This document shows, piece after piece, positions 26,096 to 32,000 of a stretch of 32,000 nucleotides of DNA. Source of the DNA: Wolbachia endosymbiont of Cimex lectularius (GTDB taxonomy: Bacteria > Pseudomonadota > Alphaproteobacteria > Rickettsiales > Anaplasmataceae); assembly GCF_000829315.1 (NCBI RefSeq), contig NZ_AP013028.1:1170001-1202000 (forward strand), given 5' to 3'. Position numbers and translations under genes: made by a program. The notes below the pieces were generated by a model, which was not told the DNA's origin, did not search any database, and was given only the letters and a program-made list of their open reading frames with translations. Numbering within the stretch: the first letter of the stretch is position 1; each line of letters starts with the position of its first letter.

Positions 26096-27649
26096 TCATT
26101 TTCTTAGCATATACCGCAATATCTCACTCGCTATAGCAACATCCTGGCGTGGAGTTTTGCCGTGTTCTATGAATACAGAGATTGCGTAGCACGGGCCATG
26201 GCAGGGGCCATAAGCGATAAACAATTTATGGCTTTCACCCCTGGAGTTTATCTCTGGAGTACCGGTTTTGCCGGCAATTTGTATGAACTCAAGCCCTTTT
26301 CTATAGGCTCCAGCTTTAGAATTCACCACATCAAACATAGCTTTTCGAACTATGTCAAGGTGCTCATGATTCACATCGATTTCAGAAAAATCCTGTGCCG
26401 TTTTACTTATCTCAATGTGGGGAACCACCTCTTTCCCTGTTGCAATCCTTGCTGCAAGAACTGCAAGTTGCAGTGGTGTTGTAAGCAAATATCCCTGTCC
26501 TATAACTAAGTTGATAGTGTCACCCAAATACCACTGCGAATATAGCTTCTGCATGCGCCAATCTCTATCAGGCAATAACCCTGGAGCTTCCTCCTTAAAC
26601 GTTCCAATTAGTGGCCCACTTCCGATACCAAATTTTCTGGCCATTTCTACTAGAGAGTCTATACTTATTTTTTTTCCTATATTATAAAAGTAAGTGTTGC
26701 ATGAGAAAGTCATTGCCTCGTTTAAAGATACATATCCATGGGCTTTGCTTTTCAGGCAACGGAATTTCCGCTCTCCTATTGTCATATAGCCCCTACATGA
26801 AAATTTTTCCTCTGGTGTGATTATTCCGTCCTTTAAACCTGCAAGCGCAACTATTACTTTAAATATCGAACCAGGTGGAATTTGATACGATAATGCACGA
26901 TTTACAAGCGGTAATGAAGGAGCATTTAGACTCTCCCAAGTCTCATTCGATAGTCTGCTAGTAAAGAGATTATTATCGTAGGAGGGTGAATTGTATAACG
27001 CTAAAATTTCCCCATTATTTACATCAATGACCACTGCAGAGCCTTTGTGACCCTGAAATACCTCTGCAATTTTCTTCTGCAGATCAATATCAATTGTTAG
27101 CTGCACATCTTGCCCGTCTTGCTGTGGTATGTTCAATAATTCTCTCATAACACGCTTCTTGGAATTTATTTCCTGCTCAGATTTCCCTGGTTCACCTTTT
27201 AATATATGATCATACGTATACTCAATGCCACTTACTCCTACCTCGCTTATTTCCTGCTGTTTTTTCGTATACCCAAGTACATGAGAACACATCGAACCAA
27301 ACGGATAGTAACGTTTATAAAGAGCAGTTATTTTTGTCCCCGAAGGTCTTGCTAAATCAGATTCAATTTCTGATAACACCTGCAAATCAGCTTCTTTACC
27401 AGAAATTTTCTGCTCATTAAACACGATTTTGTTTACCGCGAGTTCGACGCCATTTCTATCTAGAATTCTGCCCCGCCTAGGCACAATATTGGTAATCCGT
27501 ATCCTATTATTGTTAGAAAGCGCTTCGTATTTTTGTCTATTCCGTATTTGTAAATTATATAGCCTATAACTAAAAATTGTAGAAATGGTAAGCTGAATGC
27601 TACCTAATATGAATGCTCTGCGGTTAAAGACTTTGTTTTTTGTCCACAT
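26096..27649 (-). CDS. mrdA: Penicillin-binding protein 2 (elongasome transpeptidase)
   Basis: N-terminal membrane anchor and transpeptidase motifs SIFK (SxxK), SCN (SxN) and KTGT. Confidence 0.9.
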   Translation of the reverse strand: MWTKNKVFNRRAFILGSIQLTISTIFSYRLYNLQIRNRQKYEALSNNNRIRITNIVPRRGRILDRNGVELAVNKIVFNEQKISGKEADLQVLSEIESDLARPSGTKITALYKRYYPFGSMCSHVLGYTKKQQEISEVGVSGIEYTYDHILKGEPGKSEQEINSKKRVMRELLNIPQQDGQDVQLTIDIDLQKKIAEVFQGHKGSAVVIDVNNGEILALYNSPSYDNNLFTSRLSNETWESLNAPSLPLVNRALSYQIPPGSIFKVIVALAGLKDGIITPEEKFSCRGYMTIGERKFRCLKSKAHGYVSLNEAMTFSCNTYFYNIGKKISIDSLVEMARKFGIGSGPLIGTFKEEAPGLLPDRDWRMQKLYSQWYLGDTINLVIGQGYLLTTPLQLAVLAARIATGKEVVPHIEISKTAQDFSEIDVNHEHLDIVRKAMFDVVNSKAGAYRKGLEFIQIAGKTGTPEINSRGESHKLFIAYGPCHGPCYAISVFIEHGKTPRQDVAIASEILRYMLRK

Positions 27650-27810: not shown

Positions 27811-28288
27811 AGAAACAAAAAAACTACTTGACAACCTGCGCCAGTCCCCTTACAATAGAGTTGTGGGTGTTTTAGACCTAAAATTTATTTTGAATCTTTG
27901 TATTAAGTGACAAAAGCACAGTATAAAACAAGGCGTGTTATGTTTAATTTTTGCAGCATGGATACTGCATGTCTTTATAATTTTTTGCCTACATTAGCTG
28001 GACCTCGCTTATTAAGCGGTGTAAGAGAGAACCGGACGCCAAGTTTTTGAGAGAACAGTAAACAACTCACGTTGCGGGGTTTCGTTTGTCTTTTTTTTTA
28101 ATTAGTTAAAAATTTAACCAATCTCATTTTTTTCACAAAAAAATTGCTTGACAAGTTTCAACGTTTCCCTTATCATGAAATTATGGGTATTTACAACCCT
28201 AAGGTCAGCTACTTGTTAAGCGTATAGAGCATTAACGCCAAGTTATTAAAATAGATATTGACCAGGGCTTCTTTTGCCTTTTTTTCAG
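27811..28288 (+). repeat. Promoter-bearing repeat, locus E (divergent; two modules, each with its own promoter)
   Basis: AGAAACAAAAAAACTAC-TTGACA(27828..27833)-17-TACAAT(27851..27856), and AAAAAAAATTGC-TTGACA(28148..28153)-17-TATCAT(28171..28176). Module ends are GGGGTTTCGTTTGTCTTTTTTTTT (28077..28100) and AGGGCTTCTTTTGCCTTTTTTT (28264..28285). Confidence 0.7.
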
Positions 28289-28409: not shown

Positions 28410-28438
28410 GAAGGTTAGGTTATCAGATAGCATAGGTG

Positions 28439-29482
28439 ATGCGTAATCTTCTGCAAAAATGTTTAATTCTACTAATTCTTAGTATAAATGTCTGTTATGC
28501 GGAGAATGTTTTACTGCAAGCCCCACAAAAAGTTTCTGAAGAAGACATCAATAGAGTAACAGCTAATCATGACAGTAGTATGTGCTTTGCTCAGACAGAA
28601 CCGGGAAAATGGCATGTGAAATGGTGCTGGAACTCTTGTATAGACTCTGGAAATAGCAAATCAGGGTTTCAACTATCCTTTAATGGTGATGATTTAATTA
28701 AAGAATTGACAAAGCAAGAAAATGTCTCGCTCAGCGATAAAGAAGGACAAAAAAATTACGAATACGGTTGTGTAGTTAGTGACAAAAGGTTAAGTAGCAA
28801 AAGATCAAACAATACCTATCATTTTGCTCAAACTTTGTACGTACGAAATGCAACTCCAAATAGGATATCAGTACCACAAGTTGTTAAACTCATCAACGAC
28901 AAGAATGTAGTTTTCTACACTGGTGCTGGAATATCAGCACTAGTAGTGCCAGATGTATCCGAGCTTAATAAACAATTTGGAGTAGCTTTTTACGACCGCA
29001 ACTTAAAGCAAGATGATGCTATTGCACTTATACATAAAATTCTCAAGGAACCAGAAAAGTTTGCGAAAATTATAGACAATTTCTACAAAGCTTGTCTTTA
29101 TGGCATACCAACTTCAGCTCATTACGCAGTGAAGAATATAGCTTTACTTAAAAATTGGCAGCTACTCACTGAAAATGTGGATTTACTTCACCAACGTTCA
29201 GGGATTGAGGTCTTGGGAAACACGGGTGGTAAAATGAATTTTGATTGGTTGATGAATAATATCAAACCAGAGCACTTAAGGCAAATTGATTTTATTGTTA
29301 CCTGCGGACTCAATAGTGACACAGTTGGGTTTCTCGCTTTGTATAAAAAGCATAATCCTAAAGGAAAGATAATTGCAATGAATCTAGTACAACCAAATTA
29401 CTTAGGAGATGATGATATTTTGGTAGCTGGTGATTTGCAAGAAACTTTGCCTGATTTATTTGAGAACTTATCTCGGCTTTAG
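28439..29482 (+). CDS. Secreted/periplasmic SIR2(sirtuin)-fold protein lacking the catalytic His and the Zn module
   Basis: Sec-type signal peptide MRNLLQKCLILLILSINVCYA|EN. Sirtuin motifs are TGAGIS (GAGIS at 28922..28936), LLTENVDLLHQRSG (29171..29203; compare TQNIDxLHxxAG) and a C-terminal LVAGDLQETLPDLFENL. The expected ..ELHG.. reads IEVLGNT, and there are no CxxC pairs. Confidence 0.6.
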   Translation: MRNLLQKCLILLILSINVCYAENVLLQAPQKVSEEDINRVTANHDSSMCFAQTEPGKWHVKWCWNSCIDSGNSKSGFQLSFNGDDLIKELTKQENVSLSDKEGQKNYEYGCVVSDKRLSSKRSNNTYHFAQTLYVRNATPNRISVPQVVKLINDKNVVFYTGAGISALVVPDVSELNKQFGVAFYDRNLKQDDAIALIHKILKEPEKFAKIIDNFYKACLYGIPTSAHYAVKNIALLKNWQLLTENVDLLHQRSGIEVLGNTGGKMNFDWLMNNIKPEHLRQIDFIVTCGLNSDTVGFLALYKKHNPKGKIIAMNLVQPNYLGDDDILVAGDLQETLPDLFENLSRL

Positions 29483-29561: not shown

Positions 29562-29589
29562 GTATATATACTAGTAAATGGAGCTCAAA

Positions 29590-30087
29590 ATGTACGACAT
29601 ATTTGGTTACTTTCCAAAAAATAACACTTGCAACACACAATCAGATAGAGAAAGTTATCAATACACAAAAAGAGATTACGTAACAATTTACTTCAACAAT
29701 ACATTAGCCAGTCTAGGCAGATCATGGGAAAGTTTTAAAATGGATGCATGTTTAACTATGTATGAAATTGGAACTTGGCTGGAAGAAAAATACAAAAGCT
29801 TTACTGAACGAGTTAAAAAGTACGATTCCCACACCCCAACAGAAAAACCTCCAATTATTGAAGAAATAGAAATGAAGGAACTTAACTGTGCATTTAAAAC
29901 ATTCCGAACTCCGCCTATTCATCCAGCAAGCAGCAATCCTGGCGCCAATGACCTAAAGCAAGTTGTTGTTACTCGACACGCACCTCAAGTTACTCAACAA
30001 AATAGATTAGGTCCTTTAATGCACGATCGTATCTATTATGCAGTTGTATGTTGCTACTTGGATAACATCTTTTCGTGCTTGGAATAG
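29590..30087 (+). CDS. Hypothetical protein (orphan, no recognisable domain)
   Basis: The start is set at ATG 29590 (GGAG 6 nt upstream); the ORF track starts at 29578. The C-terminus is Cys-rich and hydrophobic (IYYAVVCCYLDNIFSCLE). Confidence 0.45.
   Translation: MYDIFGYFPKNNTCNTQSDRESYQYTKRDYVTIYFNNTLASLGRSWESFKMDACLTMYEIGTWLEEKYKSFTERVKKYDSHTPTEKPPIIEEIEMKELNCAFKTFRTPPIHPASSNPGANDLKQVVVTRHAPQVTQQNRLGPLMHDRIYYAVVCCYLDNIFSCLE

Positions 30088-30129: not shown

Positions 30130-32000
<1,871 letters not shown>

Follow-up and report, generated by a model that had tools for sequence, protein, structure and literature searches.

Sirtuins are known as nicotinamide adenine dinucleotide (NAD+)-dependent deacylases of the cytoplasm or nucleus, whose structure combines a Rossmann lobe with a zinc lobe. 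Some proteins with this type of domain do without the zinc ribbon: the SIR2 domains of defence NADases (ThsA, DSR1/2, SIR2-HerA, SIR2-APAZ) have none, act as NADases and keep the Asn/His pair, and vertebrate FAM118 is likewise a zinc-ribbon-free NAD+ consumer. Here we describe a SIR2-like gene found in a stretch of 32,000 nucleotides from the Wolbachia endosymbiont of Cimex lectularius (wCle; contig NZ_AP013028.1, positions 1,170,001 to 1,202,000 of the forward strand, hereafter the window). Its product is a SIR2-fold protein, and it represents a family that appears to keep the NAD+ pocket of sirtuins, drop the zinc lobe and the catalytic His, and gain an N-terminal lobe and, in diderms, a predicted Sec signal. 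This family is a discrete clade of the SIR2 superfamily in host-dependent bacteria, apparently an undescribed variant and not a new kind of system. Our literature search returned no description of it as a secreted SIR2 of Wolbachia, Chlamydiae or Dependentiae or as a zinc-less periplasmic sirtuin; automated annotation names some members 'SIR2 family protein'. We tentatively read the wCle protein as an exported NAD+-cleaving or ADP-ribosylating enzyme, and not as a deacylase. The gene and its domains are the following:

28439 to 29482, + strand: complete SIR2-like protein gene, 347 aa plus stop counted from the ATG (list of open reading frames, ORFs)
28439 to 28501, + strand: predicted Sec signal peptide, aa 1-21, MRNLLQKCLILLILSINVCYA, rule-based, cleavage between CYA and ENV, no lipobox
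28502 to 28858, + strand: family-specific N-terminal alpha/beta domain and linker, aa 22-140, from the family hidden Markov model (HMM) and the AlphaFold2 model
28859 to 29479, + strand: SIR2-fold (DHS-like NAD-binding Rossmann) domain, aa 141-347, from profile, hhalign and AlphaFold2/Foldseek; helical sub-domain kept, zinc ribbon absent

Canonical sirtuins (Sir2-Af2, 1ma3/1s7g; Sir2Tm; E. coli CobB) share the Rossmann fold of the wCle protein and are its closest structures by Foldseek. They have in common with it the GAGIS loop, the PxxAH helix, the xxNxD.LH..(A/S)G segment, the helical sub-domain and a collinear C-terminal G...N...GD series. Unlike them, the wCle family has no catalytic His, Cys4 ribbon or FGE loop, carries Glu in place of a Gln and reads VP(T/D)(M/V) where they have GIPxFR; the wCle protein also bears the extra N-terminal domain and the predicted signal peptide. 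It differs from the defence NADases in having no PADLOC match, no fused or adjacent sensor, a predicted Sec export route, and canonical sirtuins as its nearest folds. The best functional analogy is offered by the class M sirtuins (SirTM) of Staphylococcus and Streptococcus, which show a sirtuin fold without the general-base His, as here (PMC4518038). Yet SirTM proteins retain the zinc domain and a conserved Gln137/Arg192 pair at the His site, whereas the wCle family has neither and the position is variable; and SirTM is cytoplasmic and encoded in an operon with a macrodomain, GcvH-L and LplA2, while the wCle family has no macrodomain and no conserved neighbour. A further likeness is with Campylobacter jejuni SliP, a bacterial sirtuin-like effector that is released from the cell to act on its host (PMC10421069). 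SliP, however, is a DUF4917 protein exported by flagellar secretion, with no signal peptide mentioned, and is reported to be a zinc-stimulated deacetylase (PMC10421069); Pfam gave no DUF4917 match for the wCle protein.

A first-pass annotation of the window, made from the sequence alone, had proposed a SIR2 fold from short motifs, and all lines of evidence agreed with it. The protein scored 29.2 bits (E 1.1e-6) with Pfam SIR2 (PF02146), whose gathering cut-off is 24, the match covering only positions 1-105 of the 180 in the profile. By phmmer, it matched Sir2-Af2 in the PDB (E 1.5e-4), and a profile made from 31 family members recovered the same protein at E 5.6e-12, with 72 matching PDB sequences in all, of which the ones listed were sirtuins. 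With hhalign, comparison to a canonical CobB (from locus L086) gave a probability of 98.6% and an E of 5.9e-16. The AlphaFold2 model built from the family alignment reached a predicted local distance difference test (pLDDT) score of 90.5 and a predicted template modelling (pTM) score of 0.87. When this model was searched against the PDB with Foldseek, a check that the annotation had suggested, its best 50 matches were all genuine sirtuins (best E 5.6e-9; Sir2-Af1/Af2, PfSir2A, Sir2Tm, CobB and SIRT2/3/5 included), aligned over ~255 columns with a template modelling (TM) score of ~0.55 on the target.

Sequence-level matches to SIR2 end at ...LHQRSG, that is, within the N-terminal half of the domain. 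The C-terminal half is weak by sequence (BLASTP E 0.023; z = 4.1 against 2000 shuffles), and its motif matches rest mainly on the fold match and on collinear spacing. The distance from G290 to N315 is 25 aa, against 26 in CobB (from the Gly of GTT to the adenosine-ribose Asn), and the next conserved Gly lies 16 residues past the Asn in both proteins. Alignment with canonical CobB by MAFFT misplaced this half on account of the 40-50-aa deletion, and an anchored segment comparison was used instead. Relatives of the wCle protein showed sub-threshold TPP_enzyme_M matches in their C-terminal half, this being a related NAD/FAD-binding fold. Every motif quoted in the first-pass annotation was found at the expected residues (all in the gene on the + strand; nucleotide positions are given for the segments discussed below):

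28916 to 28936, + strand: YTGAGIS, aa 160-166, dinucleotide phosphate-binding loop, aligned to GAGIS of Sir2-Af2/CobB; 6 of 7 residues invariant (not I165)
28946 to 28966, + strand: VPDVSEL, aa 170-176, in place of the sirtuin GIPxFR cofactor-binding loop, from alignments
aa 224-228: PTSAH
aa 242-255: LLTENVDLLHQRSG
29168 to 29182, + strand: TENVD, aa 244-248, counterpart of sirtuin TQNxD; N246 and D248 invariant
29204 to 29287, + strand: stump of 28 aa, aa 256-283, IEVLGNTGGKMNFDWLMNNIKPEHLRQI, replacing the sirtuin ..ELHG strand, the ~40-aa Cys4 ribbon and the FGE loop
aa 256-262: IEVLGNT
aa 285-298: FIVTCGLNSDTVGF
29306 to 29320, + strand: GLNSD, aa 290-294, counterpart of the sirtuin GTS/GSS phosphate-binding turn
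aa 311-316: IIAMNL
aa 328-340: LVAGDLQETLPDL

Against this conserved framework, alignments indicate that three elements of the deacylation machinery are lost across the family: the general-base His, the Cys4 zinc ribbon and the FGE substrate loop. In the ungapped alignment G263 takes the place of the sirtuin catalytic His; with a preceding loop 3 residues shorter, G260 would do so. The wCle protein has no His in aa 252-278; H279, whose column is not conserved, is the single one that lies between the non-catalytic H251 of ..LH.. and H305. The zinc site is equally gone: C219 and C289 are the only Cys of the SIR2 domain, with no CxxC, and not a single CxxC pair occurs in 90 family sequences. The segment from SG to the next Rossmann strand, measured with the same regular expression, is 30 aa in wCle and 21-32 in the family, compared to 71 in the canonical CobB from L086, a shortening that implies that the FGE loop was removed along with the zinc ribbon. 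The missing His and absent ribbon reported in the first-pass annotation thus held, and so did its replacement of GIPxFR, of which wCle retains the Pro in VPDVSE while Phe has become Val (Met in most relatives, the family consensus being VPTM) and Arg is lost. The GTS turn, too, is changed, to GLNSD, with its Ser/Thr replaced.

Another explanation would be an ordinary CobB whose sites had been misread by eye, and Pfam does call the domain SIR2. The best score against the NCBIfam CobB/deacylase equivalogs was 33.4 bits against cut-offs of 221-395 (33 bits against 221-320 for the CobB models), so far below them that the protein is not a CobB, and the His and zinc sites are truly absent, as the first-pass annotation had maintained. 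We therefore rejected a misread CobB. The same explanation can be put as a decaying pseudogene in wCle, in line with the decayed state of the orthologues of Wolbachia sp. C61_2, wCori and wPaga, all three being pseudogenes. Nevertheless, the wCle gene is full length, retains all the invariant residues described below and shows a ratio of nonsynonymous to synonymous divergence (dN/dS) of 0.24, on which grounds decay was rejected as well. We regard both versions as already refuted and next to impossible.

Scored over 48 diverse full-length members, 16 residues are invariant (48/48): Y160, T161, G162, A163, G164, S166, H228, T244, E245, N246, D248, G255, D294, P319, D326 and Q334. They cluster in the motifs that contact NAD+ in sirtuins. 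From the alignments, the Rossmann domain appears to keep the YTGAGIS loop, the PxxAH helix, the Asn/Asp of TENVD and the adenosine-side Gly, Asn and Gly-Asp. GAGIS and TENVD are separated by 79 aa, the same length as in sirtuins, indicating that the helical sub-domain is retained. Based on established sirtuin structures, we take N246 and D248 to be the Asn/Asp of the nicotinamide pocket. Two changes are specific to the family: the Gln of TQNxD is Glu245 in 90/90 motif-matched members (the canonical CobB control has Q, and one outlier, P0216, keeps TQN), and, in GLNSD, G290 is kept in 47/48 while Asp294 is a family-specific invariant (48/48).

The loss of the His, of the Arg/Phe of the cofactor loop, of the Ser/Thr of GTS, of the zinc ribbon and of the FGE loop, with Gly at the putative His position in wCle, is what would be expected of a non-catalytic pseudo-enzyme, in which the pocket is kept for structure or for binding NAD+, ADP-ribose or a related nucleotide, making the protein a binder, sensor or decoy. 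We consider this unlikely, as the invariant N246 and D248 serve nicotinamide cleavage in sirtuins and not mere binding, and Glu245 and Asp294 are both acidic and invariant, a strictness across phyla that would be unusual for a pure binder.

The N-terminus of the wCle protein fits a signal peptide as the first-pass annotation had suggested, with cleavage after CYA. Our rule asked for a basic n-region, an h-region of 7-15 residues and small residues at -3 and -1; MRNLLQK / CLILLILSINV / CYA, followed by E, supplies a basic n-region (R2, K7), a hydrophobic core of 11 residues and small residues at both positions. Relatives in Wolbachia and in Holosporales-like, Chlamydiae, Babeliales and Verrucomicrobia genomes have hydrophobic N-termini of unrelated sequence ahead of the same conserved motif. 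This motif, N-[IL]-L-L-x-x-P (aa 23-29), is nearly invariant and directly follows the predicted cleavage site. Members from the Candidate Phyla Radiation (CPR) lack the signal peptide, having a charged start (MEGEKMFYPEKKEE..NLLLEGPE) and an insert of ~50 aa between the domains. A Sec-type signal peptide is thus predicted to be present in the diderm lineages and absent in CPR.

The domain that follows is integral to the family, given that in nearly all full-length members, CPR included, the match to the family HMM extends over both domains. In the AlphaFold2 model its secondary structure comprises a helix (34-42) and strands at 46-54, 58-69, 72-82, 99-101 and 104-109, with a low-confidence linker at aa 118-135; modelled alone, it forms an alpha plus antiparallel-beta unit with a pLDDT of 75. 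Neither a PDB search with the domain-only model (best E 0.41, not significant) nor a Pfam search of the domain returned a match. The first-pass annotation had described it as a Cys-containing domain of unknown fold: the second part stands, while the four Cys (49, 63, 67 and 111) are not conserved in the family.

Conservation of the pocket, loss of the deacylation elements and two precedents together lead us to favour, tentatively, NAD+ cleavage as the activity of this protein. SirTM sirtuins, devoid of the catalytic His, are ADP-ribosyltransferases with no deacylase activity (PMC4518038), and SliP is a secreted sirtuin-like effector that acts on host histones (PMC10421069). In the mechanism that we propose, the protein would be exported through Sec and its signal cleaved; the mature form would bind NAD+ in the manner of sirtuins and cleave the nicotinamide-ribose bond. 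Glu245, possibly with Asp294, might replace the missing His in activating the ribose hydroxyls, by analogy. ADP-ribose would then be passed to a target or to water, making the protein an ADP-ribosyltransferase or an NADase. The N-terminal domain might stand in for the zinc module as the substrate-binding lobe, and the protein would act beyond the bacterial cytoplasm, be it in the periplasm, in the lumen of the symbiosome or in the host. We counted the occurrence of the family in Wolbachia, Holosporales/Finniella, Chlamydiae, Dependentiae and CPR as typical of host-interaction genes.

A number of observations weigh against an exported NAD+-cleaving enzyme. To our knowledge, the periplasm does not contain NAD+, and neither NAD+ nor S-adenosylmethionine (SAM) is expected there; we also know of no type II secretion system in Wolbachia that could carry a Sec substrate further. 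That CPR members have no signal peptide implies that the core activity is not inherently extracytoplasmic. The replacement of the cofactor-loop Phe/Arg and of the GTS Ser/Thr could weaken or alter NAD+ binding, and the role given to Glu245 is drawn by analogy and does not come from a result. Three other Wolbachia carry the gene as a pseudogene, so it is dispensable there. Finally, in about one third of the relatives a His lies close to the catalytic position, and deacylation may therefore persist in some members.

This last point deserves closer attention. The position 5 residues after SG, where the His would be expected, varies across the family: H in 36%, R in 16%, F in 11% and G in 8%, K also occurring. 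In numbers, His is found at +5 in 33/91 sequences and at +6 in 19/91. One could then imagine an NAD+-dependent lysine deacylase working on host proteins such as histones, with Glu245 or a nearby His as the alternative base and the N-terminal domain as a substrate clamp. A fusion of the family to a SET domain (P0038, see below) brings to mind a deacetylase and a methyltransferase that work as a pair on the same lysine, LphD/RomA of Legionella being reportedly an example. SliP, a secreted sirtuin-like histone deacetylase, is a precedent in the same direction (PMC10421069). We nonetheless hold deacylation to be improbable: the wCle protein (Gly) and its Wolbachia relatives have Gly or Ala at the His position, the whole family has lost the FGE loop together with half of the acyl-lysine tunnel, and in SirTM loss of the His goes with loss of deacylation (PMC4518038).

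The wCle protein is no Wolbachia oddity, but a member of a family spread over several phyla of host-dependent bacteria, as judged by homology searches. A word-indexed search retrieved 50 relatives of 295-455 aa. A HMMER scan of 1.84 billion cluster representatives retrieved 317 of them with an E of 1e-30 or lower, and relaxing the threshold to 1e-10 or 1e-3 raised the number to 573 or 3532, the last set taking in ordinary sirtuins. The family thus numbers at least 317 cluster representatives. To establish its distribution we ran a pattern-seeded scan of one genome per GTDB species, obtaining 80 loci. Among Wolbachia, these came from wTis, wCori, the Tyrophagus symbiont, wPaga and C61_2; other alphaproteobacterial members belong to further Rickettsiales and to Holosporales/Finniella. 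Chlamydiae members are many (Rhabdochlamydia, Parachlamydiaceae, a Simkaniaceae symbiont), and the family is also found in Dependentiae/Babeliales (Vermiphilus included), in a dozen CPR/Patescibacteria lineages and, with few members, in Verrucomicrobia, Omnitrophota and Melainabacteria. Three of the 80 loci fall outside the family: one true CobB and two Lachnospiraceae loci with a shorter TENLD variant. The latter (L080:4706-5518 and L084:473-1222, Lachnospiraceae and Acetatifactor) encode a shorter, zinc-less SIR2-like protein with a different N-terminus and with GVGNPCCQ instead of GL..D, and may be a sister family.

In a neighbour-joining tree the copies group largely by host lineage, with Wolbachia monophyletic inside an alphaproteobacterial clade. 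CPR-type copies (~405 aa) are nearly identical across metagenome-assembled genomes (MAGs) of different nominal phyla, which suggests recent horizontal transfer or mis-binning. The near-identical set comprises loci L035, L039, L041, L044, L046, L049, L050, L051 and L054, and includes MAGs labelled 'Bdellovibrionales' and 'Gammaproteobacteria'. It is possible, if doubtful, that the wCle protein is the first example of a pan-symbiont class, carried by obligate intracellular and epibiotic bacteria of at least five phyla, of extracytoplasmic sirtuin-fold enzymes, which would be Sec-exported, zinc-free and His-independent, cleave NAD+ with the Glu of TENxD, use a new N-terminal substrate lobe, and either ADP-ribosylate host or envelope targets or harvest host NAD+.

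A scan of viral contigs produced just 2 weak matches, to the N-terminal half, so the family is essentially absent from them and a phage origin was dropped. The same result bears on anti-phage defence. That the SIR2 domains of ThsA-, DSR- or SIR2-HerA-type systems are zinc-ribbon-free NADases too makes a defence NADase conceivable, but there were no matches to PADLOC models, and we found no partner or sensor domain, no conserved neighbours and no defence-island context. Together with the predicted signal peptide, the canonical sirtuins as closest folds and the near absence from viral contigs, this renders a defence function very improbable.

Clustering of the neighbourhoods of ~75 loci revealed no conserved neighbour, the commonest neighbour family being present in 5 loci. 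Fusions were few but informative. Three proteins consist of signal, N-terminal domain, SIR2-like domain and a further domain: SET in P0038 (E 1.5e-12), CYTH in L013:4566-6259 (E 8.5e-16) and a HAD-IIIB acid phosphatase in P0136 (E 1.2e-28). In addition, a CPR protein (P0162) has a weak N-terminal HD domain (E 0.016), and at one locus a His_Phos_1 gene lies immediately downstream of the SIR2-like gene. These associations point in two directions: SET would indicate host-protein targets in a SAM-containing compartment, while the phosphohydrolases would indicate nucleotide processing. As SET needs SAM, its presence argues for action in a cofactor-containing, host-side compartment.

The phosphohydrolases are at the heart of another explanation, namely that the protein scavenges NAD+ or nucleotides in the periplasm, capturing or hydrolysing host-derived NAD+ whose nicotinamide or ADP-ribose is salvaged by an NAD-auxotrophic symbiont. 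The logic is analogous to the periplasmic NadN/e(P4) route of Haemophilus influenzae, and the HAD-IIIB family of Pfam presumably includes phosphatases of the e(P4) type. The signal-bearing HAD-IIIB fusion is thus in favour, as are the CYTH fusion, the His_Phos_1 neighbour, the weak HD fusion and the confinement of the family to host-dependent, cofactor-auxotrophic lineages; and the Wolbachia strain wBm lacks de novo NAD synthesis (PMC1069646). On the other hand, the phosphatase associations are single cases among >300 clusters, the best neighbour cluster stops at 5/~75 loci, the SET fusion does not fit, and CPR members have no signal peptide. We give scavenging a low probability. The list of activities drawn up in the first-pass annotation (NAD-binding, NAD-cleaving, ADP-ribosylating or pseudo-enzyme) remains valid, SirTM being a published precedent for ADP-ribosyltransferases among sirtuins without the His (PMC4518038). 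Its observation is confirmed and its interpretation partly supported: fold, losses and export signal were right, the partner was wrong.

That partner was to be the ORF immediately downstream of the SIR2-like gene. The surroundings of the gene are as follows:

26096 to 27649, - strand: mrdA/PBP2, divergent neighbour on the upstream side
29578 to 30087, + strand: WD_0964-family ORF, downstream (NCBIfam E 1e-68)
30130 to 31212, - strand: mreB, next after the WD_0964-family ORF

WD_0964 is a Wolbachia-only family. In supergroups A/B its gene is flanked by nuoJ and a UvrD-like helicase, and the vicinity has no SIR2-like gene; in wFol the SIR2-like gene is followed by an ORF that is unrelated to WD_0964; and the Tyrophagus Wolbachia locus has the SIR2-like gene without WD_0964. 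Adjacency was found only in the lineage of wCle, wTis, L008 and C61_2. Neither synteny nor co-occurrence of the two genes is therefore conserved across Wolbachia, a comparison that the first-pass annotation had recommended, and WD_0964 was rejected as a dedicated partner on the supergroup A/B, wFol and Tyrophagus loci. The wCle copy of WD_0964 extends 28 aa past the stop used in its wTis orthologue.

As for the SIR2-like gene itself, an alternative in-frame GTG start at 28436 would yield 348 aa, and the NCBI gene model uses it. The wCle protein of the databases (P0001) is 100% identical to the translated 28439..29482 ORF. Its NCBI/GenBank product name (28436-29482) is 'putative transposase', which we consider an annotation error because neither Pfam nor NCBIfam showed any similarity to transposases; the name is wrong and needs replacing. 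The wTis orthologue is 92% identical, with a dN of 0.037 and a dS of 0.151 (hence the ratio of 0.24, similar in both domains). Such a ratio, together with the presence of all 16 family-invariant residues in the full-length wCle protein, supports that the gene is functional and, as far as sequence divergence can tell, kept by purifying selection.

Its fate differs among Wolbachia. Intact copies are those of wCle, wTis, wFol and a mite Wolbachia, while others have decayed: multiple frameshifts and stops break the copies of C61_2, wCori and wPaga (L010:4990-6040, L071:4990-6040 and L011:40-640), the broken C61_2 copy being syntenic with wCle at the same PBP2-mreB locus. No supergroup A/B protein was among the homologues retrieved by the word-indexed search. 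Three pseudogenes and no supergroup A/B copy suggest an accessory gene that has been lost repeatedly. In L008, a Rickettsiales MAG whose copy is 88% identical, there is a frame change near aa 56-77.

A lineage-restricted accessory gene of this kind is a candidate determinant of strain-specific biology in wCle, an obligate mutualist of the bedbug. The family occurs for the most part in bacteria that rely on another cell. If active, its members would extend sirtuin-fold chemistry to a Glu-based, His-independent mechanism, and would constitute a shared and testable factor for host interaction or NAD acquisition across unrelated symbionts.

A search of the whole window with Rfam at gathering threshold gave no match. 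Within the 790 bp that separate mrdA from the SIR2-like gene we observed two tandem units on the + strand, at 27815-28097 and 28135-28285. Each has an 11/12 sigma-70-like promoter (27828-27856 and 28148-28176) and a 58-nt leader, the two leaders sharing 71% identity, and each ends in a G-rich stem/T-run (28077-28097 and 28265-28285, 86% identical). These units may be small RNAs or duplicated regulatory modules.

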